Assembly (NCBI GenBank): GCA_027314915.1
Contig: DAHUZZ010000006.1
Span: 23,869 to 87,868, forward strand
Length of the DNA stretch: 64,000 bases
Reading direction: 5' to 3'
Source: Thermoplasmata archaeon
Lineage (GTDB): Archaea > Thermoplasmatota > Thermoplasmata > Lutacidiplasmatales > UBA184
Shown here: positions 3,331 through 62,902 of the stretch, piece by piece
How positions within the stretch are numbered: position 1 is the first letter of the stretch
Layout of the letters: each line of letters opens with the position of its first letter
The notes under the pieces: model-generated
Told to the model about the DNA's origin: nothing
Databases searched by the model: none
The model's input: the letters and a program-made list of their open reading frames with translations, nothing else
Made by a program: the position numbers and the translations under genes

Positions 3331-4086
3331 ATGGAGATGCAGCCGGGCCAGATGGCCTACGACCGCGCGATCACCGTCTTCTCCCCGGACGGGCGACTGT
3401 TCCAGGTCGAGTACGCCCGGGAGGCGGTGCGCCGCGGCGCAACGACGGCCGGCGTGATCTTCAAGGACGGCGCGGTCCTCGCGGCGGACCGGAGGATCCC
3501 GAACCCGAAGCTCGCCGAGCCGGCGAGCCTCGAGAAGATCCACCAGATCGACGAGCACGTGGCCTGCGCGACCGCCGGGCTCGTCGCCGATGCGCGGGTG
3601 CTCGTCGACTTCGCCCGGCTGACGGCCCAGATCAACCGGGTCACCTACGCCGAGGGGATGACGGTCGAGCTCCTCGCGCGGAAGATCTGCGACTACAAGC
3701 AGCAGTACACCCAGTTCGGCGGGGTCCGACCGTTCGGCACCGCCCTCCTGGTCGCGGGCTACGACGACACGGGCGTCCGGCTGTTCGAGACCGAGCCCTC
3801 GGGCTCGCTCACGAGCTTCAAGGCGACCTCGACGGGGGGCAACAAGGGGCCGGTGATGGAGCTTCTCGAGCAGAAGTACCAGCCCAACATGGACGTGGAC
3901 AGCGCCATCCTCCTCGCCATCGAGGCGATCCGGCAGTCCCTCGAGGACCCCGCGACCCTCTCCCAGGTGGAGGTCTGCCTGGTCCACCGGGACCGCGGCT
4001 TCCGCCGTCTCTCGGCCGAGGAAATCCAGAAGTACGCGGCCCGACTGCCTCCCCCGTCGGGGACCCCCCGGGGCGGCCGCTCGTAG
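3331..4086 (+). CDS. psmA: Proteasome alpha subunit
   Basis: YDRAITVFSPDGRLFQVEYAREAV signature and GGVRPFGTALL. Start set at the ATG at 3331. Confidence 0.97.
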   Translation: MEMQPGQMAYDRAITVFSPDGRLFQVEYAREAVRRGATTAGVIFKDGAVLAADRRIPNPKLAEPASLEKIHQIDEHVACATAGLVADARVLVDFARLTAQINRVTYAEGMTVELLARKICDYKQQYTQFGGVRPFGTALLVAGYDDTGVRLFETEPSGSLTSFKATSTGGNKGPVMELLEQKYQPNMDVDSAILLAIEAIRQSLEDPATLSQVEVCLVHRDRGFRRLSAEEIQKYAARLPPPSGTPRGGRS

Positions 4087-4118
4087 GCCGTCCGCGCGGG
4101 TCCGGGAACGGCCGGGCC

Positions 4119-4814
4119 GTGGTGAAGGTCGAGGACGCGGTGGTCGCACGCTGGGAGCATCAGGGCTCCCGGTTCGAGGTGCTCGTCGATCCGAAGGCGG
4201 TCCAGGACATCAAGGACGGCAAGAACGTCGACATCGCCGACAAGCTCGCCCTGGACCATGTCTTCAAGGACGCCCGGAAGGGCGACAAGATCTCGGAGGA
4301 GTACCTCGAGAAGGTCTTCCGCACCCGCTCCGTGCCGGAGATCGCGCTCCAGATCGTCCGCAAGGGCGAGGTCCAGGTCACCACCGAGCAGCGGCACGAG
4401 CTCGCCGAGGCGAAGTACCACCAGATCGTCGCCCAGATCGCCCGCAACGCGATGAACCCGCAGACCGGGGCGCCGCACCCGCCCGCCCGGATCGAGGCGG
4501 CGATGCGCGAGGCGAAGGTCCACGTCGACCCGTTCCGGCCGGCCGACCAGCAGATGCAGGAGATCCTGCAGAAGCTGAGGCCGCTCCTCCCGATCCGGCT
4601 CGACACGGTGCGGATCAAGATCCGGCTCCGGGGCCAGGACTACCCGAAGGTCGTCGGCGATCTCAAGGGGTTCGGCAAGGTCCTCGAGGAGGGGTGGCTT
4701 CCCGACGGCTCCTGGAGCGGGATGATCGAGATCCCCGCCGGCATGCAGACCGAGCTCTACGAGCGGCTCAACGCGCGCACGCGGGGCGCCGCCGAGGCCG
4801 CCTTGGTTAAATAG
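4119..4814 (+). CDS. Ribosome maturation protein SBDS/Sdo1
   Basis: FEVLVDP, GEVQVTTEQR, NPQTGAPHPPARIEAAM motifs and canonical position after psmA. Confidence 0.95.
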   Translation: MVKVEDAVVARWEHQGSRFEVLVDPKAVQDIKDGKNVDIADKLALDHVFKDARKGDKISEEYLEKVFRTRSVPEIALQIVRKGEVQVTTEQRHELAEAKYHQIVAQIARNAMNPQTGAPHPPARIEAAMREAKVHVDPFRPADQQMQEILQKLRPLLPIRLDTVRIKIRLRGQDYPKVVGDLKGFGKVLEEGWLPDGSWSGMIEIPAGMQTELYERLNARTRGAAEAALVK

Positions 4815-4850
4815 GGCAGCCCCGTCGCGCGGTGCGGTGCAGTCAAGAAA

Positions 4851-5726
4851 ATGCCCCATGGACATCGACCCGGCCGTCGTGGGCCGGGACGCGAGGGTGC
4901 TCCCTCGCACGGAACTTCCGACCGGATTCTAGTCCTGCCCGGCGAGGAGATCGCGGCGCGCGGACTCCAGCCCGGCACCGGCACCTACCGGGTCAACGGC
5001 CACATCTACGCGAGCGTGCTCGGGCTGGTGCAGCCGCGGCCCCCGTTCGTCCGGGTGGCCCCGCTCTCCGGCCGCTACATCCCCAAGGCGCGGGACCTGG
5101 TCATCGGGATCGTGACCGACGTCCAGGGCACCTTCTGGCTGCTCGACATCGGCGCCCCGAGATGGGCTCCGCTCCACATGACCGGCACGCCCTGGAAGAT
5201 CGACTTCGGCGAGACCGAGCAGTACCTCAAGGTGGGCGATGCCGTGGTGGTCTCGGTCGAGCAGATCGAGAACACCGGGCGGATCGGCGTCACCATGATC
5301 GGCGACGGGCTCGGCAAGCTCGAGGGCGGCACCCTCGCCACGATCTCGCCCGCGAAGATCCCCCGGGTGATCGGGAAGGGCGGCAGCATGATCCAGACGA
5401 TCCAGCAGGCGACCCGGTGCGAGGTCGTGGTCGGCCAGAACGGCCGGCTCTGGATCGACGGGCCCGACGAGGGCATCCTGAGGGTCCGCGAGGCGCTGCG
5501 CCTCGTCGAGACCGAAGGGCAGCGTCGCGGCCTCACCGAGAAGGTCCAATCGCTCCTCGGCATCTCCGGCCGACCTCCGGTCGGCGCGCGGGAGACGGAG
5601 CGTTCCCCCGGCCGCGGGTCCCCCGCAGGCGAGGAGCACGAACCCCGGCACCGCCCTCCCCTCGGGGAGGATGCGGCCGGCGGCTCGGAGATGGACGGGG
5701 ACAATTCAGAACAGGACGGGAACTAG
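4851..5726 (+). CDS. rrp4: Exosome RNA-binding subunit Rrp4
   Basis: VLPGE N-terminus, YIPKARDLVIG S1 domain, KH motif PRVIGKGGSM and VGQNGRLW. Confidence 0.95.
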   Translation: MPHGHRPGRRGPGREGAPSHGTSDRILVLPGEEIAARGLQPGTGTYRVNGHIYASVLGLVQPRPPFVRVAPLSGRYIPKARDLVIGIVTDVQGTFWLLDIGAPRWAPLHMTGTPWKIDFGETEQYLKVGDAVVVSVEQIENTGRIGVTMIGDGLGKLEGGTLATISPAKIPRVIGKGGSMIQTIQQATRCEVVVGQNGRLWIDGPDEGILRVREALRLVETEGQRRGLTEKVQSLLGISGRPPVGARETERSPGRGSPAGEEHEPRHRPPLGEDAAGGSEMDGDNSEQDGN

Positions 5727-5727
5727 C

Positions 5728-6501
5728 ATGGGAAGCGTAGGAGCCAAGGAGGTCCCCCAGCTCATCGGGCCGGACGGACGAAGGATCGACGGACGGCAAC
5801 TGGACGAGCTGCGACCCCTCCGGATCGTGGCCGGGGCGCTCCACCGCGCCGACGGATCGGCGTTCGTCGAGTGGGGTGCGAACAAGGTCATGGCGGCCGT
5901 CTACGGGCCGCGCGAGGTGCACCCGAGGCACCTCCAGCAGAACAACAAGGCCATCGTGCAGTGCCGCTACAACATGGCGGCCTTCTCCGTCGACGAGCGG
6001 AAGCGGCCGGGGCTCGACCGCCGCTCGCAGGAGATCTCGAAGGTCATCGCCGAGGCGTTCGAGTCGGTGATCTTCGCGGAGGAGTACCCGCGCACGAGCA
6101 TCGACATCTACATCGAGGTGCTCCAGGCCAACGCCGGGACCCGCTGCGCGGGGCTCGTCGCCGCCTCGGTGGCGCTCGCCGACGCCGGGATCCCCATGGT
6201 CGACCTCCTGCCGGCGGTCGCCGTCGGGAAGATCGGCGGCCAGATCGCCCTCGACCTCCGTAAGGAGGAGGACAACTTCGGCGAGGCGGACCTCCCCATG
6301 GCCCTGGTCCCGCAGTCCGGCCGGCTCGTCCTGCTCCAGATGGAGGGGCACATGAACCGGGAGGAACTTTCCCGCTCGCTCGACCTGGGCGTGGTGGGCT
6401 GCCGGAAGATCTACGACGTGATGAAGCAGGCGCTCCGCGATCGCTACTCGGTCACGCCCGCGGCGCCCGCCCCCTCGGTCCCGACGGAGGCACCGGCATG
6501 A
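5728..6501 (+). CDS. rrp41: Exosome complex exonuclease Rrp41
   Basis: RIDGRQLDELRP, ADGSAFVEWG, YPRTSIDIYIEVLQANAGTR and EEDNFGEADLP. Start set at the ATG at 5728. Confidence 0.97.
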   Translation: MGSVGAKEVPQLIGPDGRRIDGRQLDELRPLRIVAGALHRADGSAFVEWGANKVMAAVYGPREVHPRHLQQNNKAIVQCRYNMAAFSVDERKRPGLDRRSQEISKVIAEAFESVIFAEEYPRTSIDIYIEVLQANAGTRCAGLVAASVALADAGIPMVDLLPAVAVGKIGGQIALDLRKEEDNFGEADLPMALVPQSGRLVLLQMEGHMNREELSRSLDLGVVGCRKIYDVMKQALRDRYSVTPAAPAPSVPTEAPA

Positions 6502-7286
6502 GCGAGGAGGTCACGGCCGAGATCCTGACGACCCACATCCTCGAGCTCGCCCAGGGCGGCAAGCGGCTCGACGGCCGGGCGGTCGACGAGTACCGGCCCG
6601 TCACGATCCAGTTCGGGTACGTGGCGAGCGCCGACGGGAGCGCGCTCGTGCGGCTCGGCAACACCACGGTCCTCTCCGGGATCAAGCTCGAGCCCGGCAA
6701 GCCGTTCCCCGACACGCCCAACGCGGGCGTGCTCACCACCAACGCGGAGCTGATCCCGCTCTCCTCGCCCACCTTCGAGCCCGGACCGCCGCACCCGAGG
6801 GCCATCGAGGTCTCGCGTGTCGTGGACCGGGCGATCCGGGCCGCCGAGGCGGTCGACCTGACCGGGCTCTGCGTCACCCCGGGGGAGAAGTGCTGGACCT
6901 GCTTCGTCGACATCCACGTGCTCGACCACTCGGGCAACCTGATCGACGCCTCCATGCTCGCGGCCGTCTCCGCGCTCTCGCGCGCGACGCTGCCGGGCAA
7001 GCGGTTCGAGATCGGGGAGGACGCCCCGCTCAACATCCGGCACCTGCCCATCGAGACCACCTTCTGCCGGCTCGGGGAGACCATCGTCGTCGACCCGACC
7101 TTCGAGGAGGAGACGGCCGCCCAGGGGCGGGTCACCATCGCGACGGACGAGATCGGCAACGTCGTCGCCATGCAGAAGGGGCTCGTCGGCGCCTTCGCGC
7201 CGGAGGAAGTGAAGCAGCTGGTCGACCGGGCGTTCCGCCACGGCGACCGCCTGCGCGAGCAGATCCGCCGCGGGGGAGGCCCATGA
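6498..7286 (+). CDS. rrp42: Exosome complex component Rrp42
   Basis: RLDGRAVDEYRP, PFPDTPNAG, FEPGPP, GNLIDA. ATGA overlap with rrp41. Confidence 0.96.
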   Translation: MSEEVTAEILTTHILELAQGGKRLDGRAVDEYRPVTIQFGYVASADGSALVRLGNTTVLSGIKLEPGKPFPDTPNAGVLTTNAELIPLSSPTFEPGPPHPRAIEVSRVVDRAIRAAEAVDLTGLCVTPGEKCWTCFVDIHVLDHSGNLIDASMLAAVSALSRATLPGKRFEIGEDAPLNIRHLPIETTFCRLGETIVVDPTFEEETAAQGRVTIATDEIGNVVAMQKGLVGAFAPEEVKQLVDRAFRHGDRLREQIRRGGGP

Positions 7287-7564
7287 GCAAGCGGACGAAG
7301 AAGGTCGGGTGCACCGGCTGGATGGGTCCCCGCTACGGGATCCGGATCCGCCGGAGGATCCTCGAGATCGACACGGTCAAGAGCGCCCGGTCGCGCTGTC
7401 CCAAGTGCGCGACCGTGACGGTGAAGCGCGTGGCGAGCGGCGTCTTCGAGTGCCACCGCTGCGGGCGGCGGTTCGCGAGCGGCGCCTACCAGTTCACCCC
7501 GGCGCCCCCCATCGTGCGCACGGAGCGGGCGGCCGAGCCCGCGGCGGCCCCCGGCAAGCGGTAG
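7283..7564 (+). CDS. rpl37ae: 50S ribosomal protein L37ae (eL43)
   Basis: MSKRTKKVG..GPRYG, C4 zinc ribbon (CPKC, CHRC), FASGAY. ATGA overlap with rrp42. Confidence 0.95.
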   Translation: MSKRTKKVGCTGWMGPRYGIRIRRRILEIDTVKSARSRCPKCATVTVKRVASGVFECHRCGRRFASGAYQFTPAPPIVRTERAAEPAAAPGKR

Positions 7565-7658
7565 GCCGGGGCGGATCGCGGGCGAGGCTTCTTCCTCCCC
7601 GGGGCCCTGGAGCCTCCGTGGCCGAGGAGACCGCGCGCCGGTCCCGGGCCCTCCGCCC

Positions 7659-8363
7659 GTGACCGCCCGGAGCCGGGACGAGGCGCTCGTCGAGCTCAAG
7701 CTGGAGGGGCCGCGGGTCCCCCACTGGCTCAACGACCTCGGGACCCGGTACGGGGCCGTCGTGAAGCTCCACGTCTGCCGGTCCACCGAGGACCGGCCGC
7801 GGAAGCTCGTCCGCCTCCTCGAGATCACCGCCGCCCCGGACCGGCTCGATGAGATCTCCACCTTCCTCGTGAGCAAGGCGGGCCGCGGCAACGTCGCGCA
7901 GACCCGGGTCGCCGCGCACCGGCTGATCGCCCGGCTGCGGACGCCGCTCCCGGCCATCTGCCAGTCGGTCTTCGACCTGGGGGCCATCTGCACGAGCTGC
8001 CCGTTCCTCGCCGAGGGCGACCCGGAGGAGACCGAGAGCTCCTGGGGGCTCCTGGTCCCCCGCGCGGCCGATGCCCGGCCGATGATCCGCGACCTCAAGG
8101 GCTCCGGCGGGAACCCGCCGCGCCTGATCCGGGTCGGGAAGTACCGCGGCCCGCCCGACCTCACCCCGCGCCAGGAGCTCGCGGTCCACCTCGCCCACCG
8201 GATGGGCTACTTCGAGACGCCCCGCCGGGCGGACCTCGACCAGCTGGCCCGGGCCCTCGGGGTGAGCCGGCCGACGGCGATGGAGATCCTCCGGCGCGGC
8301 CTGCAGAAGCTCGCCGAGCGCCACGCGACCGGGCCGGCGGCCACGCGCGCGCTCGGGGGCTAG
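7659..8363 (+). CDS. Bat-like (HTH_10) transcriptional regulator with a Cys-containing N-terminal domain
   Basis: C-terminal LTPRQ..A...GYFETPRRADL..LA..LGVS...EILRR is typical of the bacterio-opsin activator HTH. N-terminal ICQ...ICTSCPF. Confidence 0.8.
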   Translation: MTARSRDEALVELKLEGPRVPHWLNDLGTRYGAVVKLHVCRSTEDRPRKLVRLLEITAAPDRLDEISTFLVSKAGRGNVAQTRVAAHRLIARLRTPLPAICQSVFDLGAICTSCPFLAEGDPEETESSWGLLVPRAADARPMIRDLKGSGGNPPRLIRVGKYRGPPDLTPRQELAVHLAHRMGYFETPRRADLDQLARALGVSRPTAMEILRRGLQKLAERHATGPAATRALGG

Positions 8364-8367
8364 GCCG

Positions 8368-9414
8368 CTACCCCGGCACGACGACGGTCCGCAGGCCCCG
8401 GCCCTCCCGGAGCCGGTCCGCCGCTTCCCCGATCCGCTCGAGGGGGACCCGGCCGGAGACGATCTCGTCGACCCGGACGCGGCCGGACCGGACCAACTCG
8501 ATGACCCGGGGGTAGTCGACCGGCCGGCAGCCGAGCGAGCCGAGGACCGTGTACTCGAAGAACATGAGGCGGTTCATCGGGAGCGTCGCCGGCGCCTCGC
8601 CGTAGCCGACCACGCAGAGCCGGCCGCCCCGCCGGAGGGTCGAGAGCGCGAGGGAGAAGGTGCCGGGGCTCCCGACGGCGTCGAAGGCGACGTCCACCCC
8701 GCCGCCCGTCGCCCGCCGGATCCGCTTCGCGACCTCCGGTTCCCGCTCCGGGTTCAGCGCCTCCGTCGCGCCGAGCCGGGTCGCGAGCGCGAGCTTCTCA
8801 TCCTTCACATCGAGGGCGGTCACCAGGCCGCCCGCCACGGCGGCGAACTGGACCACGTTCATCCCCACCCCACCGCAGCCGACGACCGCGACCTGCTCGC
8901 CGGGCCGGACCCGGGCCCGCTCCACCACGGCATGGAAGGGGGTGGTGAGGGCGTCCGCGATCACGCAGCCGTTCACGAGGTCGATCGACGCGGGGAGCGC
9001 GACGAGGTCCTTCCCGGGGACCGCGACGTACTCCGCGTACCCGCCGTCGACGTGGTTGCCGACCATCCGCATCTCCGGGCAGATGTTCTCCCGCCCCGAC
9101 CGGCACCACGCGCACCGCCCGCACGGCAGGACCGCCGGCACCAGGACGGGATCGCCCGGGCTCCATCCGCCGGCGCCCTCCCCGACCTCCTTCACGCGGC
9201 CGGAGATCTCGTGGCCGAGGATCATCGGGGGCGGCTTCGCCGTCGGGACGTGGTGGTCGAGGTAGTGGAGGTCGGTGTGGCAGAAGCCGCAGGCGGCGAC
9301 CTCGACGAGCACCTCGCCGGGCCCCACGCGGGGGCGGTCCACCTCCTCGAGGACGAGCGGCCGGCCCGGGCCGTGGAAGACCGCGGCGCGCATCTTCCCC
9401 GGCCCCGCCACCAC
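8368..9414 (-). CDS. had: Zn-dependent alcohol dehydrogenase, probable 6-hydroxycyclohex-1-ene-1-carbonyl-CoA dehydrogenase
   Basis: CGFCHTD, GHE, structural Zn CGRCAWC..C and GCGGVG motifs. The specific call rests on its position in the BCR operon. Confidence 0.78.
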   Translation of the reverse strand: MVAGPGKMRAAVFHGPGRPLVLEEVDRPRVGPGEVLVEVAACGFCHTDLHYLDHHVPTAKPPPMILGHEISGRVKEVGEGAGGWSPGDPVLVPAVLPCGRCAWCRSGRENICPEMRMVGNHVDGGYAEYVAVPGKDLVALPASIDLVNGCVIADALTTPFHAVVERARVRPGEQVAVVGCGGVGMNVVQFAAVAGGLVTALDVKDEKLALATRLGATEALNPEREPEVAKRIRRATGGGVDVAFDAVGSPGTFSLALSTLRRGGRLCVVGYGEAPATLPMNRLMFFEYTVLGSLGCRPVDYPRVIELVRSGRVRVDEIVSGRVPLERIGEAADRLREGRGLRTVVVPG

Positions 9415-9415
9415 C

Positions 9416-10186
9416 CTACGCCTCCCTCCAGACCGGGCTCCGCTTCTCCAGGAAGGCGCGGAGCCCCTCCTCGGCGTCGGGGGAGGCCATGAGCTCCTCC
9501 CGGTACAGCCGCTCGGCGTGCGCGACGTGGGTCCAGGGGTCGGAGGTGGTGCGCCGGATCGCCCGCTTCATCAGCCGGAGCGTCTCCCGGCGGTAGCCGC
9601 AGATCGTCTGGGAGAGGAGCGCGACGGTCGCCGGGAGTTCGACGGCCGGCACCGCCCGGTTCACCACGCCCAGGGCGGCGGCCTGGGCCGCGCTCAGGGT
9701 GGCGCCGGTCATCATGAGCTCGAAGGCGGTCCGGCTCCCGAGCGCCTGCGGGTAGTAGGCGGCGGCGAACGGCGCGAAGACGCCGAGGCGGACCTCGGGC
9801 TGGGAGAAGGTCGCATCGTCCGCGGCGTAGGCCAGGTCGCAGGCCATGAGGAGCTCGAGGCCGCCGCCCAGGCAGCGGCCGTGGACCTCCGCGATCGTGG
9901 GCGCCGGCAGCTCCCAGAGCGCGTGGAGCGCCCGGTCGAACGCCCCGAGCATCGCGTCCACGCGGGGCGCGAGGTGGTCCCCGATCTCGAAGCCGGCGCT
10001 CCAGCCCTTGCCGAGCCCCCGGACGATGACGACCTTGGCCTCGCGGACCTCCCGGCGGTGGAGTGCCGTGGCGAGCTTCGTGAGCAGGTCGACGTCGAAG
10101 ATGTTGAGCGGGGGCCGTGACCACTCCACCGTGGCCCGGCCCTCGACGATCGCGACCTGGACCTCCCCGGGGGGACGCGTCGGCAT
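9416..10186 (-). CDS. dch: Crotonase-fold enzyme, probable cyclohexa-1,5-diene-1-carbonyl-CoA hydratase
   Basis: RPPLNIFD, WSAGFEI.DH, CLGGGLEL, QPEVRLGVFAP. Position in the BCR operon. Confidence 0.78.
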   Translation of the reverse strand: MPTRPPGEVQVAIVEGRATVEWSRPPLNIFDVDLLTKLATALHRREVREAKVVIVRGLGKGWSAGFEIGDHLAPRVDAMLGAFDRALHALWELPAPTIAEVHGRCLGGGLELLMACDLAYAADDATFSQPEVRLGVFAPFAAAYYPQALGSRTAFELMMTGATLSAAQAAALGVVNRAVPAVELPATVALLSQTICGYRRETLRLMKRAIRRTTSDPWTHVAHAERLYREELMASPDAEEGLRAFLEKRSPVWREA

Positions 10187-10195
10187 GGCCCCCCC

Positions 10196-11437
10196 TCAGT
10201 CGAAGAGCTGCGATTCCACGAACGTCTCGAGCTGGAGCCGGGCCTGCTCGTACGTCGTCGACCGCTCCTCGAACTCCATCTGCAGGTAGGGGATGTTCCG
10301 CTTCTCGAGGGCCCGGCGGTAGAGGACCACGTCCTCCAGGGCCGGCTCGCAGAACTTCGCCGTGAGGAACAGGACCCCCTGGGCCCCCGTCCGCTCCACC
10401 CGCGCGAGGATCCCCGCCTCCTTCGTGGTCGGGGTGGCCCGCACGCCGATGTCCACGGGGGCCTCGAGGTAGGCCCGCGCCAGGTTCTCGAGCGGGTCGC
10501 CCTCCGACGGCACGTCCCCGTACCAGCGGGACAGCATCTGGAACTCCTCGCCGACGACGGCGCAGCCGGACTCCTCCAGCAGCGAAAGGAGGTCGAGGGT
10601 CGGCTGCTCGCAGAAGGGCCCGACGACGACCACGCGGAGCGCGTCCCGCGGCTTCCGGTGCCGGGCCGTGAGCTCGGCGAGCGCCCGTTCAAGGAGCTCG
10701 ATGTGGAGCTCGCGGGGGAGCGTGCTCCCGAGCCGGGTGAGGAGGTACATCTCCACCAGCGAGAGGTCGGCCGGGCGCTCCCGGCGGAGATCGGCGAGCT
10801 CGCCCACGAGCCTCCGCTGCCGGTTGAACGTCGCGAGCGACGCCCGGAGATGTTCGGGGTCGTAGGCCCGGCCCGCGACCCGCTCGAGCTTCGCGAGGAG
10901 CCGCCGGTACTCGGCGATGAGGAACGGGAGCGTCGCCGCGGATCCGAAGTTCTGGGGGAGATGCAGCATGTGGGTCATCTTCCCCGGGAGGCTCCGGGCG
11001 AAGATCCCCTCGAGGTTGCGGCTCACGTCGCAGATGTAGGGGAAGACGAAGCCCTCGAAGGCGTCGAGGCGTCCGGTGAGCGCCATCTCGAGCGTCGACT
11101 TGCTGATGGAGCAGAGGAAGGAGCCGAGGAGCGCATCGGCGTGGGTGATCTCGAGGTTCTCCCCGCCGCCCTGGACGGTCACCGGCAGCATCCCGAGCGC
11201 GTGGATCAGTTCCTGCGGCGTGTAGACCGGGAACGTGGCGACGGAGCGGCCCCCGGCGCGCTTCCAGGCGCGCGCGACCGGGAAGGTGGGGTCCCCGAGG
11301 ACCTCGCCCGCGAGGCGCACCATCTCGGCAACGCCGGCGGCCGAGCGGAACTCGGCGAGGTCGTTGGAGAGCTCGAGGGAGGGGGCGGCCGGCTCCTCCT
11401 CCGTCCGCTCGCCGATCGTGAGGAGCGGCGCGGCCAT
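10196..11437 (-). CDS. bcrC: Benzoyl-CoA reductase subunit C (BcrC/BzdN-like, HGD-D family)
   Basis: PVYTPQELIHA.G, SFLCSI, PYICDVSRNL, GPFCEQP, AKFCEPAL, LETFVES. Start at the ATG at 11437. Confidence 0.82.
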   Translation of the reverse strand: MAAPLLTIGERTEEEPAAPSLELSNDLAEFRSAAGVAEMVRLAGEVLGDPTFPVARAWKRAGGRSVATFPVYTPQELIHALGMLPVTVQGGGENLEITHADALLGSFLCSISKSTLEMALTGRLDAFEGFVFPYICDVSRNLEGIFARSLPGKMTHMLHLPQNFGSAATLPFLIAEYRRLLAKLERVAGRAYDPEHLRASLATFNRQRRLVGELADLRRERPADLSLVEMYLLTRLGSTLPRELHIELLERALAELTARHRKPRDALRVVVVGPFCEQPTLDLLSLLEESGCAVVGEEFQMLSRWYGDVPSEGDPLENLARAYLEAPVDIGVRATPTTKEAGILARVERTGAQGVLFLTAKFCEPALEDVVLYRRALEKRNIPYLQMEFEERSTTYEQARLQLETFVESQLFD

Positions 11438-11439
11438 CG

Positions 11440-12255
11440 CTAGGCCACCGCCGCCGACGGGGAGACGCCCTGCTCGATCCGGAGCTTCCGGGCCCGGCCC
11501 AGCATCGCGCTCCCGAGGGCCGCCGCGTAGTGGCCCTGCGGGGAGACGTTCACCGGGCACCCGATCGTCTGCGAGAGCGCGCGGACCATCCCCGGGTTGT
11601 GGACGAGCCCGCCCACCAGGGTGACCTCCGGCGCGATCCCGACGTAGCGCATCAGCGCGTGGGAGCGCTGGGCGAGGGAGAGGAAGATGCCCATGAGCAT
11701 GTCCGGGAGCGGGACCCCCTCGGCGACGTTGTTGATGATCTCCGTCTCGGCGAGCACGGCGCAGACGCTCGAGATGAGCCGGGGGTGCTCGGCGTCGAGC
11801 GCCTTGGGGCCCATCGCCCCGATGGGCACCTGCAGGTACTTCGAGCAGCGTTCGACGAACCGGCCGGCGCCGGCCGCGCACTTCTCGTTCATCTTGAACC
11901 GGGTCACCTTCCCGGTCTCGGTGACGGCCAGGGCGCGGGAGGACTGGGCGCCGATGTCGACCACGTGCCGGGTCCCGGGGAAGAGGAAGACCGCGCCGCG
12001 TCCGGAGGAGGTGATGTCGCTCACCTGGAGGTCGCGCTCGGGAAGGCCGCTCCGTCCGAAGCCCGTCGTGCAGACGTAGTCGATGTCGCCGGTGAGGACG
12101 TTCCCCTCCTCGCCCAGCACCTCGAGGACCCGGCGCGCGGCGGCCGCCGGGTTCCCCCGGGTGGGCTCGATCGCCGTGCCCAGGATGCGGCGGCCGTCCT
12201 CGAGGAGGACGCCCTTCGTCGAGCTCGAGCCCACGTCGAGGCCGCAGGTGATCAT
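11440..12255 (-). CDS. bcrD: Benzoyl-CoA reductase ATP-binding activase subunit (BcrD/BzdP-like)
   Basis: ASKHA motifs GLDVGSSSTK and VVDIGAQ, plus cluster Cys in MNEKCAAGAG and SVCAVLAETE. Confidence 0.8.
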   Translation of the reverse strand: MITCGLDVGSSSTKGVLLEDGRRILGTAIEPTRGNPAAAARRVLEVLGEEGNVLTGDIDYVCTTGFGRSGLPERDLQVSDITSSGRGAVFLFPGTRHVVDIGAQSSRALAVTETGKVTRFKMNEKCAAGAGRFVERCSKYLQVPIGAMGPKALDAEHPRLISSVCAVLAETEIINNVAEGVPLPDMLMGIFLSLAQRSHALMRYVGIAPEVTLVGGLVHNPGMVRALSQTIGCPVNVSPQGHYAAALGSAMLGRARKLRIEQGVSPSAAVA

Positions 12256-13043
12256 GCGGCCGCCCCCTCGCACCGGGCCTGGCCGGCCAGCGCGGCCCCG
12301 AGGGCGCCCATGAACTGGGAGAGCGGGCTCACGTTCACCGGGGCGCCGAGCCGCCGGCGCAGCGCGAGGACCATCCCCTCGTTCCGCGAGACCCCGCCGG
12401 TGAAGGTGACCTCGGGCTCGATCCCCACGCGCTGCATGAGCGAGAGGCTCCGGCTCACGATGCTCGCGTGGAGGCCGGCGAGGATGTCCTTCGGCTCCTT
12501 CCCCCGGGAGACGAAGGAGGTGACCTCCGACTCCGCGAAGACGGTGCAGGTGCTCGTCACCTTGAGCGGGTGGCGCGCCTGGAGGGAGAGGGGGCCGATC
12601 TCCCCGATGTCGAAGCCCAGGGCGTTCGCGCAGACCTCGAGGAAACGGCCGGTCCCGGCGGCGCACTTGTCGTTCATGGCGAAGTCGATGACCTCGCCGG
12701 AGGAGCCGACCCGGATCGCCTTCGTGTCCTGGCCCCCGATGTCGAGGACGAGCCGGGTGCCCGGGAAGAGGAAGTGCGCCCCCCGGGCGTGGCAGGAGAT
12801 CTCCGTGACCGTGAGCTGGCCGAAGTACACCTTGTAGCGTCCGTAGCCGGTCCCGGCGATGAACGCCGCCTCGGAGCGCTCGCGCCGCGCGTCCCGGAGG
12901 GCGAGCTCGAGCGCGACCTCGGCGTCCTTCACGATGTCCACGCCGACCGGGCTCAGGGACTTCCCGACGATCTCCTTCCCCTCGAGGAGGACGCACTTCG
13001 CCGTCGTCGAACCGATGTCCATGCCCGCGACGAGCGCGCTCAT
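12252..13043 (-). CDS. bcrA: Benzoyl-CoA reductase ATP-binding activase subunit (short BcrA/BzdQ-like)
   Basis: GMDIGSTTAK, GTGYGR, EISCHARGA, LDIGGQD, MNDKCAAGTGRF, STCTVFAESE. Confidence 0.8.
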   Translation of the reverse strand: MSALVAGMDIGSTTAKCVLLEGKEIVGKSLSPVGVDIVKDAEVALELALRDARRERSEAAFIAGTGYGRYKVYFGQLTVTEISCHARGAHFLFPGTRLVLDIGGQDTKAIRVGSSGEVIDFAMNDKCAAGTGRFLEVCANALGFDIGEIGPLSLQARHPLKVTSTCTVFAESEVTSFVSRGKEPKDILAGLHASIVSRSLSLMQRVGIEPEVTFTGGVSRNEGMVLALRRRLGAPVNVSPLSQFMGALGAALAGQARCEGAAA

Positions 13044-14335
13044 GCGGCGACCTCCGTGGCCGGCGCCTTCGTCGTCCGGCGCTGGTCGAGGGACTCGAAG
13101 AACGCGTCCATCCGGTTCTTGATCTGGGCCGGGGCGAAGTAGCGGGGGTCCTGGTGGTCCGACTCGATGTACAGCGTCGGGACCCCCTGGTCGTGGATGA
13201 GCCAGTCCCGGAGGTCGCCCTGGCCCGCCGTGAAGGAGCGGCACGACTTGATCCCGTGGATCACGACCGCGTCGACGGAGTACTCGCGCAGGTACTCCTG
13301 GATCAGCTTCCGCCGGAGCGTCCAGGACTGGTTCACGTAGGCGCCAAGGCTGTACTCGGCGATGCTCTCGAAGGGCCGGGCGGGGTCGTGGAGGAACCCC
13401 CGGTCGAAGAGCCCCCCGACCTTGGGGTACGTCGCGACCACCGAGACCGCCCCCCACTTCCGGAAGAAGTCCCAGAAGGTCCGGTAGTTGGTGTACGGCG
13501 GGACCCCCTCCACCAGGACCCGGACCTTCTCCTCGGGCAGCGGGAGGTTGCCCTCCCGGACCCTCCGCTCGACCTCGGCGTTCACGACGTCGTAGAAGTC
13601 GGCGGCCTGGGCCGTGCCGCGCAGCACGTTGATCGGGAACATGTAGAAGATCGCCTCGAAGTAGGCCTCGATGGGCGACGGCCGGAGCCGTCCCGCGCGC
13701 AGGTAGCGGGCCCATCCCTCCTCGGCGCGCCGGGTCTCGCGCAGGACCCGCTTGAGCTCCTCCATGTCGAACGCGCGGCCGGTGCGCTTCTCGAGCTGGT
13801 GGACGAACTCCCAGAGCTGGGCGACCATGTACTGGATGTCCTCCTTGTACGGGACCTCCTCGCGCAGGTACGGCACGTCGTAGGTGAACATCGGCGCGCC
13901 GTAGCTCTCGGCGAGCGCCTCCCACCACTTCACGTAGACATAGCAGCCGGAGAAGCTGCAGACGAGCAGGTCGGGCCGCGGGATCCGGCCGAAGGGCGTG
14001 GAGCCTCCCAGGTCCTGGAGCCCGAGGTCGTTCTTCACGTAGCCGCAGACGTCGAGCCCGTAGCCCATCGCCTCGGCGTGCAGGATGTTCTCGAGCGAGC
14101 GGTGCTTGATGGCGCAGTTGAGGGCGACGATCTCGGGGAAGACGACCTCGTAGCCGAACGACCGGACGATCTCGGTCAGGTTCCCGCCGACGAGCATGTA
14201 GGCGACGGGTCGCTGGGGGCCGCCCGCCTCCGCGAGACCGCGGTAGTACTCCTCCACCAGGCGTCGCTGGAGCTCGCGCCCGGAGTCCAGGAAGTCGCCC
14301 TCGCGCGGGGGCGCGGCCCCGGCGGCCCCGGTCAC
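13040..14335 (-). CDS. bcrB: Benzoyl-CoA reductase subunit B (BcrB/BzdO-like, HGD-D family)
   Basis: DVCGYVKND, PRPDLLVCSFSGC..Y.KW, IKSCRSF, LYIESDHQDPR, NRMDAFFESL. GTG start overlaps the oah stop (GTGA). Confidence 0.82.
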   Translation of the reverse strand: MTGAAGAAPPREGDFLDSGRELQRRLVEEYYRGLAEAGGPQRPVAYMLVGGNLTEIVRSFGYEVVFPEIVALNCAIKHRSLENILHAEAMGYGLDVCGYVKNDLGLQDLGGSTPFGRIPRPDLLVCSFSGCYVYVKWWEALAESYGAPMFTYDVPYLREEVPYKEDIQYMVAQLWEFVHQLEKRTGRAFDMEELKRVLRETRRAEEGWARYLRAGRLRPSPIEAYFEAIFYMFPINVLRGTAQAADFYDVVNAEVERRVREGNLPLPEEKVRVLVEGVPPYTNYRTFWDFFRKWGAVSVVATYPKVGGLFDRGFLHDPARPFESIAEYSLGAYVNQSWTLRRKLIQEYLREYSVDAVVIHGIKSCRSFTAGQGDLRDWLIHDQGVPTLYIESDHQDPRYFAPAQIKNRMDAFFESLDQRRTTKAPATEVAA

Positions 14336-15447
14336 GGGGACCTCCGCGCGCCGCCCCCGTGGACCGAGGCGCCGCACCGGCCGCAGAAGTCGAACGCGGC
14401 GGGGAGCCCGATCGTGCCGCACTTCGGGCAGCTCCGGGCGGGCGGCCCGAACCGGAACTCCGGGCTCTCCCCGCGGGCGAGCTGCGCCCGGATCTCGCGC
14501 GTCCGGGCCGGTCGCTTCTCGACGAACGCGCGCATCCCCTCGAACGGTTCGGCGGTCGCGAAGTGGAGCGCGAGCCACTCCTGGGCGTGCCCGGCGGTCT
14601 GGCTCCAGACGAGCTCCTTCCAGAAGTTGGTCTGCTCCTTGGTGTACCGCAGGCACTCCGGGAACATCCCGAGCAGCCGCTCGGCGAGCGACGCGACGGC
14701 GGCGTCGAGGGGGCGGAGATCGATCGCATACTCCTCCTTCCCGCGCCCCGCGAGCTCGACCTCCCGGTCCGAGGGGACCGCGATGAGATCGCCCTGGTGG
14801 CGGATCGACGGCGCGACCTCGGAGACGAGCCCCCACTCGAGGGCCCGCGCGGCCGGGATCCGCTCGTTGAGGAAGAGCATCCGCCGGGCGCGACGGTCGC
14901 CCACGGCGAGGGTGAGCCACTGGGTCGCCCCGCCGGCCGCGACGGAACCGACCCCGACCCCCACCTGGCCGATGTAGACGTGGCTGGCCGCGACGGAGAG
15001 GTCGCAGGCGAGGTGGAGCTCGTTCCCGCCGCCGACGGTGATCCCGTTCAGCCGCGCGATGGTGGGCTTCCCGCACCGCAGCAGCGCGTCGACGGCGTCC
15101 CGGAAGAGCGCCATGTACTTCCAGTAGTCGTGCGGGCGCTGGGTGTAGCGGGAGGCGTACTCCTTCACGTCCCCGCCCGTGCAGAACGCGCGGGTGCCGG
15201 TGCCCGTGAGCACGATCACGCCGACGGAGTCATCGCAGGAGGCGTCCCGGACCGCCTGCGCGAGCTCCTTGAGCGTGTGGGTCGAGTAGGAGTTGAGCGC
15301 CCCGGGCCGGTCGAGGGCGATGGTGGCCACGCCCGCGAGCTTCGTGTAGCGGAGCTCCCGGAACTTGAGCGCCGGGGCGGGCGCGAATTCGTCGGGGGAT
15401 TCGTCGGCGGCCCGCTCGGCGGATACCGGGGCGACGCTCCGGCTCAT
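14332..15447 (-). CDS. oah: 6-oxocyclohex-1-ene-1-carbonyl-CoA hydrolase (Oah/BamA-like) with a C-terminal C4 zinc ribbon
   Basis: Crotonase motifs AFCTGGDVKEY, GGGNEL, VGSVAAGGATQWL, FPECLRYTK, plus CPKC..CGRC tail. An alternative GTG start lies at 15462. Confidence 0.82.
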   Translation of the reverse strand: MSRSVAPVSAERAADESPDEFAPAPALKFRELRYTKLAGVATIALDRPGALNSYSTHTLKELAQAVRDASCDDSVGVIVLTGTGTRAFCTGGDVKEYASRYTQRPHDYWKYMALFRDAVDALLRCGKPTIARLNGITVGGGNELHLACDLSVAASHVYIGQVGVGVGSVAAGGATQWLTLAVGDRRARRMLFLNERIPAARALEWGLVSEVAPSIRHQGDLIAVPSDREVELAGRGKEEYAIDLRPLDAAVASLAERLLGMFPECLRYTKEQTNFWKELVWSQTAGHAQEWLALHFATAEPFEGMRAFVEKRPARTREIRAQLARGESPEFRFGPPARSCPKCGTIGLPAAFDFCGRCGASVHGGGARRSP

Positions 15448-15533
15448 GGCAGCAGGGCCCACGCAGGGCCCGCGGATTCTGCTGTCCCCTAACCGGTGAG
15501 GGACGCACGGACGGGAGCCGCCCGTTCCCCCGC

Positions 15534-15911
15534 CTACCCCGACCGGAGGCCGGGCGCATCGGGGGAGGCGTCGGACCGCCGGACGGGGGCCGGGGGCCGA
15601 TCGGCCGGGGGCACCGGCCGCAGCTGCTCGAGCGCCCGCACCTTGCCTTCTTCCACGATCTGCCGCAGGACCCTCCAGCAGAACTCGGGGTCGAGCCCCA
15701 GCTCCCGGGCCCGGACGTAGGTGCGGAGCCGCAACGCCGCCTCCTGGTTCGGGTCGACGAGCTCGAGCCCGTGGGCCTGCTTGATCTCCCAGAGGACCGC
15801 CACCAACCGGAGGCGCCGTTCGACGAGCTCGAGGAGCGCGCGGTCGAGCTCGCTGATCTGGGTCCGCACGGAGCGCAGCTCCGCGGGAAGGATCGGCGGC
15901 GAAGAGGTCAC
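15534..15911 (-). CDS. AroQ (type II) chorismate-mutase-like protein
   Basis: LRSVRTQISELDRALLELVERR...EIKQAHG..VDP.QE matches the AroQ helix pattern, but some active-site residues differ. Confidence 0.72.
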   Translation of the reverse strand: MTSSPPILPAELRSVRTQISELDRALLELVERRLRLVAVLWEIKQAHGLELVDPNQEAALRLRTYVRARELGLDPEFCWRVLRQIVEEGKVRALEQLRPVPPADRPPAPVRRSDASPDAPGLRSG

Positions 15912-15997
15912 GTCCCCGGCAGGGGCCGAGCGACTTGGCGTGGACCCCTCACCCGTTAGGGAGGGGAGTTAGGAGCCCCCGACCCCCTCGCGAGGGC

Positions 15998-17173
15998 GTG
16001 GAGCTGGTTCTCGCCTCGAACTTCGACGATGAGCTGGTCCGGAGGACCTCGGAGCTGCCGGTCTCCACGTTCTTCGGGGGGTTCCCCTTCTCGCTGGTCG
16101 GCGGCGGGCGGCCGCCCCGCATCCTCCCGAAGATCGAGGACGATGGCTTCCGCCGGCACGTCGAGGCGGTCCACCGCGCGGGGCGGAAGTTCATCGCCAC
16201 GGTGAACTCCTCGGACCTCGGGCTCCAGGAGTACCGCGAGGGATTCCTCGCCCGGTTCAAGGCCGAGATGGCCCACCTGCTCGAGCTGGGCGTGGACGGC
16301 TTTGTCGTCGCCCTGCCGATCCTCATCCAGACGATCCACGAGGAGTGGCCCGACGTGCCGATCTCCGTCTCCACCTTCGCCCGGATCCGTACGGTGAACC
16401 AGGGGGTCTACTTCCTCCGGCTCGGGGCCTCGACGCTGGTCCTCGAGGAGGCGAACCGGGACTTCGGCCTCATCCGAGGCCTCCGGAACGCGGGGGCCGA
16501 GGTCGAGATCCTGACCAACCAGACCTGCGTGCGCGACTGTCCGTACCGGGCCCACCACCTGAACACGAGCTCGCTCGCCTCCCAGCCCGGGAGCACCGCG
16601 GTCCCGTTCGAGCTCCCGATCCTCCAGTGCGGACTCGAGATGGTCCGGGACCCCACGAAGCTGATCTCGTCGATCTGGGTACGACCGGAGGACCTCGAGG
16701 CGTACGAGGACGTCGGGGTCACCCGGTTCAAGATCTCGGGGCGGAACCGTACGACGGACTGGCTGGTCCGGGTCGCCGAGGCCTATGCGGCGCGGCGCTA
16801 CGAGGGGAACCTCCTCGACATCCTGAGCTTCGTGCAGGTGAAGGGCCCGCTCGCGGCGCTCCAGACGATCGAGCGCGATCCCGCGGCCCGCGACGTGGCG
16901 GGCCGGTTCCGCCGCGCCTACGACTCCCTGTCGCGCGTCACCATCGACAATTCGGCGTTCCCCGCCGGGTTCCTCCGCCGCATCGCCTCGAGCGACTGCC
17001 TGCACCGCTCCTGCGAGGAGTGCGGGTACTGTCCGTCCGTGGCGGAGCGCGTCCTCCGGATCGACGGGGTGCCCCCGTCGAAGTATCGGCCGAACCTCGA
17101 TCCGGGACCGCTGGGGCCGCTCCTCGAACGGATCGGGCGCCCCGCGCCCCCGGACGGGGCGCTGCCGCCGTGA
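15998..17173 (+). CDS. Peptidase U32 family Fe-S protein (UbiU/UbiV/TrhP/RlhA superfamily)
   Basis: TIM-barrel segments (ISVSTFARI, EILTNQTC, FKISGR), Cys cluster CVRDCP..H..C and C-terminal CxxxxCxxCxxC. Start placed at the GTG at 15998. Confidence 0.75.
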   Translation: MELVLASNFDDELVRRTSELPVSTFFGGFPFSLVGGGRPPRILPKIEDDGFRRHVEAVHRAGRKFIATVNSSDLGLQEYREGFLARFKAEMAHLLELGVDGFVVALPILIQTIHEEWPDVPISVSTFARIRTVNQGVYFLRLGASTLVLEEANRDFGLIRGLRNAGAEVEILTNQTCVRDCPYRAHHLNTSSLASQPGSTAVPFELPILQCGLEMVRDPTKLISSIWVRPEDLEAYEDVGVTRFKISGRNRTTDWLVRVAEAYAARRYEGNLLDILSFVQVKGPLAALQTIERDPAARDVAGRFRRAYDSLSRVTIDNSAFPAGFLRRIASSDCLHRSCEECGYCPSVAERVLRIDGVPPSKYRPNLDPGPLGPLLERIGRPAPPDGALPP

Positions 17174-17258
17174 TCTCCCCGGCCCCCGGAGCCCGGGCCC
17201 GCCACCGGCGGGTCTTATCGGCCCGGCCGCGTGCGGGGGGACCGGAGGTGGCCGGTCC

Positions 17259-18083
17259 GTGACCGTCAGGTTCGACCGGGACGGCCCGATCGCGATCCTC
17301 ACGCTCGATCGGCCGTCGGCGCTGAACGCGATCGACCCCGAGACCCATGCGCAGCTCCTCGAGGCCTGGGGACGGTTCCGGGACGACGAGGGCCTGCGGG
17401 TCGCGATCCTTCGGGGGGCCGGCGACCGGGCCTTCAGCGCCGGCATCGACCTCAAGCGGCTCCCGGAGTTCTACGCGGAGCTCTACCCGGGCGAGCGCCG
17501 GGAGCGCTGGCAGCGCTCCCCCGGGCTCGCCGGCCTCACCCGGAACTTCGAGGTGGGTAAGCCGGTGATCGCCTCGATCCAGGGCTACTGCCTCGGTCTG
17601 GGCCTCGAGCTGGCGCTCGCCTGCGACCTCCGGATCGCGAGCGAGGAGGCCACCTTCGGCCTGCCCGAGGTGCGCTGGGGGATCATCCCCGGCCAGGGCG
17701 GAACCCAGCGCCTGCCCCGGACGATCCCCCTCGGGGCCGCGCTCGAGATGATCCTCACCGCCGGCCCCATCGACGCCCCCCGCGCCCTCGCCCTCGGGCT
17801 CGTGAACCGGGTCGTCCGCCGCGCCCGACTCGACACCGAGGCCCGCGCCCTCGCCTCCCGCATCGCCGAGCACCCGCCCCGGGCCGTCCGTCAGGCCCGC
17901 GAAGCGGTGCGTCGCGGACTCGAGCTGCCGCTGGTCGACGGCCTCCGGCTCGAGCAGGACCTGGCCGACGCGCTGCGGGGCGCGGCCGAGGGCGCCCGCG
18001 TGGGCGCCAAGTTCTCGGTCCGCCCCCCGCGCCGGGGCCGCCGCCGGTCGGCCTCGCGGGGCCGTTCCCGAGCTTCCCCCTAG
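17259..18083 (+). CDS. Enoyl-CoA hydratase/isomerase
   Basis: LDRPSALNAI, AFSAGIDL, CLGLGLELALACDLR, PEVRWGIIPGQGGTQRLPR. Confidence 0.9.
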   Translation: MTVRFDRDGPIAILTLDRPSALNAIDPETHAQLLEAWGRFRDDEGLRVAILRGAGDRAFSAGIDLKRLPEFYAELYPGERRERWQRSPGLAGLTRNFEVGKPVIASIQGYCLGLGLELALACDLRIASEEATFGLPEVRWGIIPGQGGTQRLPRTIPLGAALEMILTAGPIDAPRALALGLVNRVVRRARLDTEARALASRIAEHPPRAVRQAREAVRRGLELPLVDGLRLEQDLADALRGAAEGARVGAKFSVRPPRRGRRRSASRGRSRASP

Positions 18084-18150
18084 CACGCGCCCGGGGCGTC
18101 GGGAGGTCGACCCCCCCAAGCGTTATGCGGGGTCATTCGGTCCGGCCGGC

Positions 18151-18285
18151 ATGTTCCGGTGCATTCGCTGCGGGGAGGCGCTCCCGAGCGACGCGAACCT
18201 GTTCGGCGTCCGCTGCGATAACTGCGGCGGGAAGATCTTCACGAAGGAGCACCCCAACGTGAAGAAGGTCCTCAAGGCCCGGTAG
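18151..18285 (+). CDS. rpoP: DNA-directed RNA polymerase subunit P (Rpo12)
   Basis: Translated by hand as MFRCIRCGEALPSDANLFGVRCDNCGGKIFTKEHPNVKKVLKAR (44 aa), with the CxxC..RCxxCGxKIFxK pattern. Too short for the ORF track. Confidence 0.9.
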   Translation: MFRCIRCGEALPSDANLFGVRCDNCGGKIFTKEHPNVKKVLKAR

Positions 18286-38435: not shown

Positions 38436-38561
38436 CGGAGCGCGGCGAGCGAGCCGCGATATTAGGCGTTTCCGGCCGCCGAGAACCGCCCGGGTCGGAT
38501 CGGTGTCGCGGGCCCGACAGGAAGGTAAAGGAGATGAGCCGCGGCCGGTACCGAACCGGGC

Positions 38562-38819
38562 GTGACGGCCCCGGTGCGCGTCCTCCTCTTCGCCTCGGCG
38601 CGCACGGCGGTGAACTCCGCCCGGATCGAGCGGAAGGTCCCCGAGCGCGGGCTCCCCGTCCGGCAGTTCCTCGACGAGCTCGTGCGCGACTACCCGGCGC
38701 TCCGACCCGTGACGGAGGTGGCGCGCTTCGTCCGGAACGGGGAGTACCTCATGGGCACCCGCGGCCGGATCGGACCGGGTGACGAGCTCGCGATCCATCC
38801 ACCGTACAGCGGGGGCTGA
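38562..38819 (+). CDS. moaD: MoaD/ThiS-family ubiquitin-like sulfur carrier (SAMP-like)
   Basis: V.LFASAR N-terminus, GDELAIHPP, C-terminal SGG. Confidence 0.88.
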   Translation: MTAPVRVLLFASARTAVNSARIERKVPERGLPVRQFLDELVRDYPALRPVTEVARFVRNGEYLMGTRGRIGPGDELAIHPPYSGG

Positions 38820-38821
38820 CC

Positions 38822-57450: not shown

Positions 57451-57461
57451 CGCCCGGTCCC

Positions 57462-58082: not shown

Positions 58083-58100
58083 GGCCGACCGCCCCCGGGA

Positions 58101-59786: not shown

Positions 59787-59804
59787 GCTGCTTCTCCGCC
59801 CTTC

Positions 59805-61862: not shown

Positions 61863-61871
61863 CCGTCCCCC

Positions 61872-62720: not shown

Positions 62721-62902
62721 CGGAGCGTCCTCCCCTCGACCGGGTAGTGGTAGTCGTCCGGCTCGGCCGGGTCCGGGATGGGCGCGGTCCCGGGCAGCTC
62801 GGCCCGGTCGCTGTTGTAGAAGGCCGCCCAGGTGATCCCCACCCCGAGCAGCATCACCAGGATCTCGACCAGCGTGATCTGGTCATCGATGGAGAGGCTC
62901 AT
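62717..62902 (-). CDS. Small single-TM protein coupled to the Rieske gene
   Basis: MSLSIDDQITLVEILVMLLGVGITWAAFY...; ATGA overlap with tatA and GTGA overlap with the Rieske gene. Confidence 0.6.
   Translation of the reverse strand: MSLSIDDQITLVEILVMLLGVGITWAAFYNSDRAELPGTAPIPDPAEPDDYHYPVEGRTLR

Follow-up and report, generated by a model that had tools for sequence, protein, structure and literature searches.

A probable upper benzoyl-CoA pathway operon in a soil Thermoplasmata archaeon, with a Thauera-type class I reductase and a zinc-ribbon hydrolase

Introduction

What chemistry is carried out by seven tightly packed genes of a soil Thermoplasmata archaeon whose products resemble benzoyl-coenzyme A (benzoyl-CoA) reductase (BCR) and the enzymes that follow it, and how much of the corresponding pathway does the genome hold? 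Where aromatic carbon is turned over without oxygen, the bottleneck is its anaerobic de-aromatisation, which to our knowledge is known biochemically almost only from a few Proteobacteria and Ferroglobus. The genes lie in a stretch of 64,000 nucleotides, hereafter the window, taken from positions 23,869 to 87,868 of contig DAHUZZ010000006.1 (assembly GCA_027314915.1; Lutacidiplasmatales, UBA184). A preliminary description of this DNA presented them as a complete, class I (ATP-dependent) upper benzoyl-CoA pathway with a reductase of the Azoarcus type. The present analysis makes it likely that the operon does encode the upper benzoyl-CoA pathway, most likely in functional form, and that the aryl-CoA reductase at its core is ATP-dependent and of class I, though of the type represented by Thauera BCR and 3-methylbenzoyl-CoA reductase (MBR). 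The complete reductase, together with a cyclohexa-1,5-dienecarbonyl-CoA hydratase (Dch), a 6-hydroxycyclohex-1-ene-1-carbonyl-CoA dehydrogenase (Had) and a ring hydrolase, is supported in this archaeon by hidden Markov models (HMMs), solved structures, phylogeny, cluster ligands and synteny. The operon is real and intact; it is divergent, yet it can be recognised as belonging to a known pathway, bcr genes having already been published from Thermoplasmatota. Its most original element is the hydrolase, an undescribed variant ending in a zinc ribbon.

Results and Discussion

The operon

The seven genes, all on the minus strand, are the following.

14332-15447, minus strand: Oah-like ring hydrolase candidate, 371 residues; a crotonase of the MenB/BadI/Oah type whose C-terminal part carries a CxxC-x12-CxxC zinc ribbon (residues ~338-360)
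13040-14335, minus strand: BcrB-like catalytic subunit (B), 431 residues, HGD-D family
12252-13043, minus strand: BcrA-like ATPase subunit (A), 263 residues, BcrAD_BadFG family
11440-12255, minus strand: BcrD-like ATPase subunit (D), 271 residues, BcrAD_BadFG family
10196-11437, minus strand: BcrC-like second HGD-D subunit (C), 413 residues
9416-10186, minus strand: Dch-like crotonase, 256 residues, best NCBIfam match TIGR03189
8368-9414, minus strand: Had-like zinc-dependent dehydrogenase, candidate 6-hydroxycyclohex-1-ene-1-carbonyl-CoA dehydrogenase, 348 residues

Starts and stops of all seven, re-derived from the reading frames, agree with the arrangement first described: oah and B overlap by GTGA, B and A as well as A and D by ATGA, and gaps of 2, 9 and 1 nucleotides separate D from C, C from dch and dch from had, respectively. 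An independent public gene call on the near-identical contig of GCA_027315785.1 gives the same seven genes with the same lengths, in which Pfam recognises two HGD-D proteins, two BcrAD_BadFG proteins, two enoyl-CoA hydratase (ECH) family proteins and one zinc-dependent alcohol dehydrogenase (Zn-ADH). The four reductase genes are thus adjacent and translationally coupled, and they comprise two HGD-D and two different BcrAD_BadFG ATPase subunits. That the host is a Thermoplasmata-like archaeon, as was also proposed, is confirmed by marker genes in the window (proteasome alpha, exosome Rrp4/41/42, EF-2, ribosomal proteins S7/S12 and PolB) and by the closest named homologues, which are from Thermoplasmata.

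A reductase of the Thauera type

For each of the seven proteins the best NCBIfam match is the corresponding Thauera-type family of the benzoyl-CoA pathway. The B subunit scores 324 bits on TIGR02260 (equivalog cut-off 487), against 159 on HadB and 108 on BzdO, and the C subunit 282 bits on TIGR02263 (cut-off 421), against 171 on HadC and 114 on BzdN, so that in the comparison of bcr and bzd models with those of the dehydratases, which had been proposed as a check, the BcrB and BcrC families come out on top. The A subunit scores 199 bits on TIGR02259 (cut-off 578), with only its C-terminal 200 residues matching, at model positions 227-429, and the best equivalog for D is TIGR02261, BcrD, with 157 bits (cut-off 313). 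Solved structures tell the same story. The nearest ones for B, C and A are MBR subunits, with HadBC behind and BzdNO far behind: B matches MbdO (9g87) with 1e-62, then HadB with 2e-36 and BzdO with 1e-28; C matches MbdN with 3e-75 and HadC with 1.5e-46; the best match of A is MbdQ, the alpha subunit of MBR, with 6.5e-89; and D matches MbdQ with 2e-57 and MbdP with 3e-52.

These values leave no room for the Bzd (Azoarcus) label that the short BcrA, devoid of an N-terminal extension, had earned in the preliminary description. The Bzd families (TIGR03190-03192) are not the best match of the subunits, the bzdO and bzdN scores lie far below the Thauera-type ones, the PDB matches point the same way, and a short alpha subunit is not a Bzd trait, since MbdQ, the alpha subunit of the Thauera-type MBR, has 269 residues. 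Bzd-type assignment was rejected on both counts; judged from its sequence, the reductase is of the BCR/MBR (Thauera) type rather than the Azoarcus type, and the locus corrects the subtype assignment.

Trees were built for 121 relatives of the B subunit and, more carefully, for 57 rows, with two canonical BcrB references (P0126 and P0128) that pass the TIGR02260 cut-off with 630 and 815 bits. The window's B, canonical BcrB and MbdO form one clade with full support (ultrafast bootstrap/SH-like approximate likelihood ratio test, UFboot/SH-aLRT, 100/100) on a stem of 0.78 substitutions per site. Within it, the nearest relatives of the window's B are from other soil Thermoplasmata (76-85% identity), followed by Asgard sequences of the Heimdall, Hod and Thor lineages (57-61% identity, 100/100 support), and there is a weaker grouping with a set from Caldarchaeum, Nitrososphaerales and Methanomassiliicoccales. 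Clustering of the subunits with 2-hydroxyacyl-CoA dehydratases had been named in advance as the outcome that would speak against a BCR; the B subunit groups with the dearomatising reductases.

The cluster ligands are in place. In B, C97, C131 and C365 are invariant in 81 homologues and align with Cys95, Cys128 and Cys380 of BzdO, the three ligands of its aqua-[4Fe-4S] active-site cluster (PMC11971306). Y99 of B aligns with BzdO Tyr97, and E68, in an invariant PE motif, is probably the equivalent of BzdO Glu65, although the alignment stops short of that region of BzdO. This set of residues is necessary but not discriminating, because HadB also has the three cysteines, the glutamate and the tyrosine. 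The C subunit has five conserved cysteines, among them C276 (kept in 97% of 75 homologues) and C292 (kept in 93%), two residues that MbdN also has and HadC lacks. Each ATPase has the two cysteines of the bridging cluster that were noticed at the outset: C127/C166 in A, invariant in 76 homologues, and C126/C165 in D, invariant in 61.

Could the four genes nevertheless encode a 2-hydroxyacyl-CoA dehydratase with its activator (HgdABC, HadBC-I or FldBC-I), serving amino-acid fermentation next to ordinary beta-oxidation enzymes? The Pfam families HGD-D and BcrAD_BadFG are common to both systems, the homologues are listed at NCBI under the name '2-hydroxyacyl-CoA dehydratase family protein', and HadBC with HadI of Clostridioides difficile (PDB 3o3m/4eht) shares with the window's proteins the superfamily fold and the principle of ATP-driven electron injection. 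However, besides the lower HadB and HadC scores, HadB and its ~30%-identical relatives fall outside the 100/100 BCR clade, the dehydratase has a single gene for a homodimeric activator where the window has two distinct ATPase genes, HadC is without the two extra cysteines of C, and the linkage to Dch, Had and Oah homologues recurs across phyla. We regard the dehydratase as highly improbable, and it was discarded on phylogeny, cysteine pattern and synteny.

Dch, Had and their linkage to the reductase

The Had-like protein scores 255 bits on TIGR03201 (cut-off 339), 56 bits above the next family (198), and 7quy and 7qul, both solved structures of Had, rank among its top three PDB matches. The Dch-like protein scores 148 bits on TIGR03189 (cut-off 292.5), and the next, generic crotonase family follows at 134, a margin of only 14 bits; support for its being a Dch comes mainly from its conserved position. 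Of the 80 named loci from species-representative genomes that were compared together with Heimdallarchaeota LC_3, 26 have a Dch-like homologue next to their BCR genes, and so does LC_3. More generally, reductase genes are repeatedly flanked by Had, Oah and Dch homologues in Thermoplasmatota, Asgard archaea, Nitrososphaerota, Acidobacteriota, Bacteroidota, Planctomycetota, Pseudomonadota and others, and one locus of proteobacterial type (L083) carries true equivalogs of all three (Oah 627, Had 568 and Dch 397 bits). The window's Thermoplasmata lineage shares the gene order BADC with the Caldarchaeum/Nitrososphaerales/Methanomassiliicoccales group, and CBAD is the order elsewhere, including LC_3.

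A ring hydrolase with a zinc ribbon

The first gene of the operon had been called oah, and a canonical Oah (6-oxocyclohex-1-ene-1-carbonyl-CoA hydrolase, also BamA) it is not. Its product reaches 205 bits on TIGR03200, where the cut-off is 464, with a best stretch restricted to model positions 39-224 of 360, followed by BadI (146) and MenB (143); its nearest solved structures are MenB, and it is 35% identical to the canonical Oah of L083. It ends in CPKCG-x12-CGRCG, to which the matches of Pfam zinc-ribbon families are weak. The CxxC-x12-CxxC tail is kept in BCR-adjacent homologues, 48-73% identical, from Thermoplasmata, Heimdall, Caldarchaeum, Nitrososphaerales, Acidobacteria, Neomarinimicrobiota, Bacillota and Lentisphaeria, whose public names are generic and go no further than 'enoyl-CoA hydratase-related'. 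This marks out a distinct subfamily with a zinc-ribbon tail.

In 23 of the BCR loci examined the ribbon type is the sole Oah-like gene found, and two more have the same core with no visible ribbon. One locus, L078, joins a canonical-type BcrB to a ribbon-type hydrolase, which argues for functional displacement of the canonical Oah. It is tempting to propose that the zinc-ribbon crotonase is an unrecognised family of ring-cleaving hydrolases that has taken the place of Oah/BamA in a large share of the class I BCR clusters that uncultured archaea and bacteria carry; the displacement would then span clusters of Thermoplasmata, Asgard archaea, Nitrososphaerota, Acidobacteriota, Fidelibacterota, Bacillota and Lentisphaerota. 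We hold this proposal, drawn from sequence comparison, tentatively and with slightly less than even confidence. The ribbon itself may add a regulatory or complex-forming function. Should the proposal be right, surveys of anaerobic aromatic degraders by oah/bamA markers or KEGG orthologues miss these lineages, and the locus exposes a hydrolase variant that standard markers pass over.

Comparison with known systems

The best known counterpart is BcrCBAD of Thauera aromatica with its Dch, Had and Oah. Like the window, it has four subunits (two HGD-D proteins and two ATPases of the acetate and sugar kinase/Hsc70/actin, ASKHA, superfamily), the same Fe-S ligands, a B subunit in the same superclade, and linkage to a dienoyl-CoA hydratase, a dehydrogenase of the Zn-ADH type and a ring hydrolase. 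It differs in that the window's BcrA is without the N-terminal extension of ~170 residues, the order is BADC and not CBAD, there is no ferredoxin gene in the cluster, and Oah is replaced by the zinc-ribbon variant. MBR of Thauera chlorobenzoica (MbdONQP, PDB 9g87/9gai) shares with the window a short alpha subunit and the five-cysteine pattern of the gamma subunit, whereas its B subunit branches within another subclade of the B tree, its pocket has a Val where the window's has a Phe, and its order ONQP is equivalent to B-C-A-D.

The Bzd type has also been reported for Ferroglobus and Lokiarchaeota. In its Azoarcus/Aromatoleum form (BzdNOPQ, PDB 8s02) it catalyses the same overall reaction as is predicted for the window, with short ATPase subunits and the three-cysteine aqua-[4Fe-4S] design of the active site (PMC11971306), but BzdN holds an [8Fe-9S] cluster through six cysteines where the window's C has five conserved ones.

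Annotation-based reports of class I bcrABCD in archaea exist for the 'Ca. Yaplasmales' of marine sediment, which belong to the same phylum as the window's host, Thermoplasmatota (Zheng et al. 2022, PMC9239135), and for Asgard archaea (10.1101/763623; PMC8163825). A South China Sea bin in our set (L010), which by its name SY.153 is apparently from the Yaplasmales study, has a B subunit 54% identical to the window's that falls in another subclade, near bacterial sequences, and its order is CBAD-dch-had, as opposed to BADC with the hydrolase upstream in the window's soil lineage. The description of the soil order Lutacidiplasmatales makes no mention of benzoyl-CoA or aromatics. The Thauera-type class I reductases of soil Thermoplasmata form a large and uncharacterised clade in archaea, and the locus is a clean and complete example of it that is anchored in the chromosome.

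The predicted pathway and what weighs against it

Reasoning from homology, reduced ferredoxin, possibly supplied by 2-oxoacid:ferredoxin oxidoreductases, would deliver single electrons to the [4Fe-4S] cluster that bridges the BcrA/BcrD heterodimer, and ATP hydrolysis would lower the potential of the transferred electron. The electron would pass by the cluster of BcrC to the three-cysteine, open-site [4Fe-4S] cluster of BcrB, where benzoyl-CoA, or a close ring-substituted analogue, would be reduced to cyclohexa-1,5-diene-1-carbonyl-CoA. Dch would then hydrate the diene, Had would oxidise the 6-hydroxy group, and the zinc-ribbon MenB/BadI/Oah-like crotonase would add water and open the ring to give 3-hydroxypimeloyl-CoA, which would enter general beta-oxidation. 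Three 2-oxoacid:ferredoxin oxidoreductases are encoded in the genome, and the one that lies in the window could provide the reductase with reduced ferredoxin:

35798-39104, minus strand: two-subunit 2-oxoacid:ferredoxin oxidoreductase (POR/POR_N, then TPP_enzyme_C/PFO_beta_C)

Several observations weigh against this interpretation. None of the seven proteins reaches its equivalog cut-off and B is only 40-43% identical to canonical BcrB, therefore the substrate specificity can only be inferred. Canonical Oah proteins are 33-39% identical to the window's hydrolase, have another C-terminal half and are without the ribbon. Outside the operon, in a genome that is 84% complete, no dedicated benzoate-CoA ligase was found, the only AMP-forming ligases being Acs and a FadD-like protein, both below the benzoate-CoA ligase cut-off; nor was a clear glutaryl-CoA dehydrogenase found in it, its five acyl-CoA dehydrogenases all being generic. 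The pathway once called complete is so in its upper part only. A family-III CoA-transferase on contig C33 was considered as the activating enzyme and rejected: it is generic, and does not track BCR because it is near-universal in the order (162 of 186 genomes).

The physiology of the host is the other difficulty. A respiratory operon at 56548-64000 on the minus strand encodes TatC, Rieske protein, cytochrome b, COX1 (477 bits), CtaA and CtaB, so an apparently O2-respiring host, with a heme-copper O2 oxidase, carries an O2-labile and ATP-consuming reductase. No molybdopterin oxidoreductase was found in the genome, and nitrate-type respiration was accordingly not detected. Such a host puts into sharper focus by what means organisms of this kind could meet the cost of reducing the ring with ATP.

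In one alternative the chemistry is the same and the enzyme is specialised for another aryl-CoA, ring-substituted or otherwise different, as MBR is for 3-methylbenzoyl-CoA; the breakdown of lignin or humic matter could yield, for example, methyl-, hydroxy- or halobenzoyl-CoA. The sub-threshold scores on all benzoyl-CoA equivalogs are in its favour, and so are the lack of a detected benzoate-CoA ligase, the different subfamily of the hydrolase, and the position of the window's clade, which is as far from canonical BcrB as MbdO is. The pocket residues give little guidance. At the position of BzdO His131 there is a Tyr in the window's B and a Phe in MbdO; at that of BzdO Leu383, which lines the ring pocket, the window's Phe368 is shared with canonical BcrB, where MbdO has a Val, a weak hint as to the substrate. 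The Dch-like and Had-like proteins have the ordinary types as their best matches, a point that, like the Phe, counts against the alternative and is weak either way. On balance we find such a specialisation rather unlikely.

An inserted cassette

The genome (1.85 Mb in 76 contigs) has one copy of BcrB, and the operon lies within a block that splits a junction of the exosome superoperon.

7283-7564: rpl37ae, left flank of the block
7565-18150: accessory block of ~10.6 kb between rpl37ae and rpoP, from HTH_10 to ECH3 and including CM_2 and U32
7659-8363, plus strand: HTH_10 (Bat-type) transcription regulator (Pfam HTH_10, 2e-17), convergent with had
15534-15869, minus strand: chorismate-mutase-type gene (CM_2; sub-threshold for TIGR01791), directly upstream of oah
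15998-17173, plus strand: Peptidase_U32 gene, head-to-head with the CM_2 gene, inside the inserted block
17259-18083, plus strand: ECH3, a third crotonase of 274 residues, generic enoyl-CoA hydratase (Pfam ECH_1, 1e-54)
18151-18285: rpoP, right flank of the block

In nine sister genomes, six of them congeneric, rpl37ae and rpoP are directly adjacent; because the site is empty there, the block is to be seen as an accessory cassette that this species has acquired by insertion between the two genes. The congener G020 has the empty site and carries its BCR on another contig, only 77% identical. A motif upstream of rpoP, CCCCCAAGCGTTA, is kept at 18113-18125, at the right border of the block, and no direct or inverted repeats were found flanking the block. 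The locus shows the cassette to be mobile within the archaeal order, where the reductase is carried by 64 of the 186 species genomes, by 35 of the 72 of high quality, in seven of the ten genera, and by two of the eight genomes of the window's genus.

Such a setting raises the suspicion of a recently acquired passenger, silent or decaying in an aerobic host, or of a locus of which only Dch, Had and the hydrolase are used, for example on alicyclic acids entering at the dienoyl-CoA level. The species-specific insertion, the patchy distribution across order and genus, the O2 oxidase and the absence of anaerobic molybdoenzymes from the genome as assembled speak for it. The seven frames, however, are intact, translational coupling is kept, all Fe-S ligands are invariant, and the GC content at third codon positions of had and dch (0.94-0.98) is host-like. 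Since the block is intact in about half of the order's high-quality genomes, selection seems to act on it. A passenger is, in our judgement, decidedly unlikely.

In the relatives, the conserved unit is ECH3, then oah-B-A-D-C-dch-had, then HTH_10, and beyond ECH3 and HTH_10 no further conserved neighbours were found in seven related Thermoplasmata loci. Five of the related Thermoplasmata loci (L004, L008, L019, L025 and L069) have the HTH_10 gene in the corresponding place, with 49-52% identity, and its product is the candidate for, and likely, the regulator of the operon. ECH3, the divergent neighbour, adjoins oah in related Thermoplasmata loci with 58-66% identity, and its NCBIfam matches are generic enoyl-CoA hydratases only.

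The CM_2/U32 pair is absent from the other related loci, apart from a U32 homologue (63% identity) that flanks the cassette in L025. Among the U32 proteins are hydroxylases that depend on prephenate and work without O2. No RNA families were found in the window.

Observations in related loci

In Heimdallarchaeota LC_3 (L003), genes for an AMP-binding ligase, an aldehyde:ferredoxin oxidoreductase and a ferredoxin-like protein at 3367-8724 adjoin CBAD-dch-had; these candidates for substrate activation and electron donation have no counterparts in the window's cassette. In the locus of the congener G020 (L095, G020:C10), only ~615 nucleotides (5573-6188) separate had from bcrC and there is no Dch match, so that Dch may have been lost or truncated.

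Nine loci of Methylomirabilota/Rokuibacteriota (L028, L030, L033, L035, L036, L039, L042, L048 and L052) have their C-B and A-D pairs ~4-5 kb apart, with other genes in between; Had and Oah homologues were not found near them, and four have a Dch-like gene. These split loci may represent a different use of the same reductase type.

Three Planctomycetota loci (L029, L032 and L037) carry, ~9 kb upstream of BCR, a distant HGD-D gene (24-26% identity to B) and a single activase-like gene, and LC_3 has, upstream of its own BCR genes (407-2494), a comparable second module made up of HGD-D and one activase-like gene. All four modules look like dehydratase- or double-cubane-type systems.

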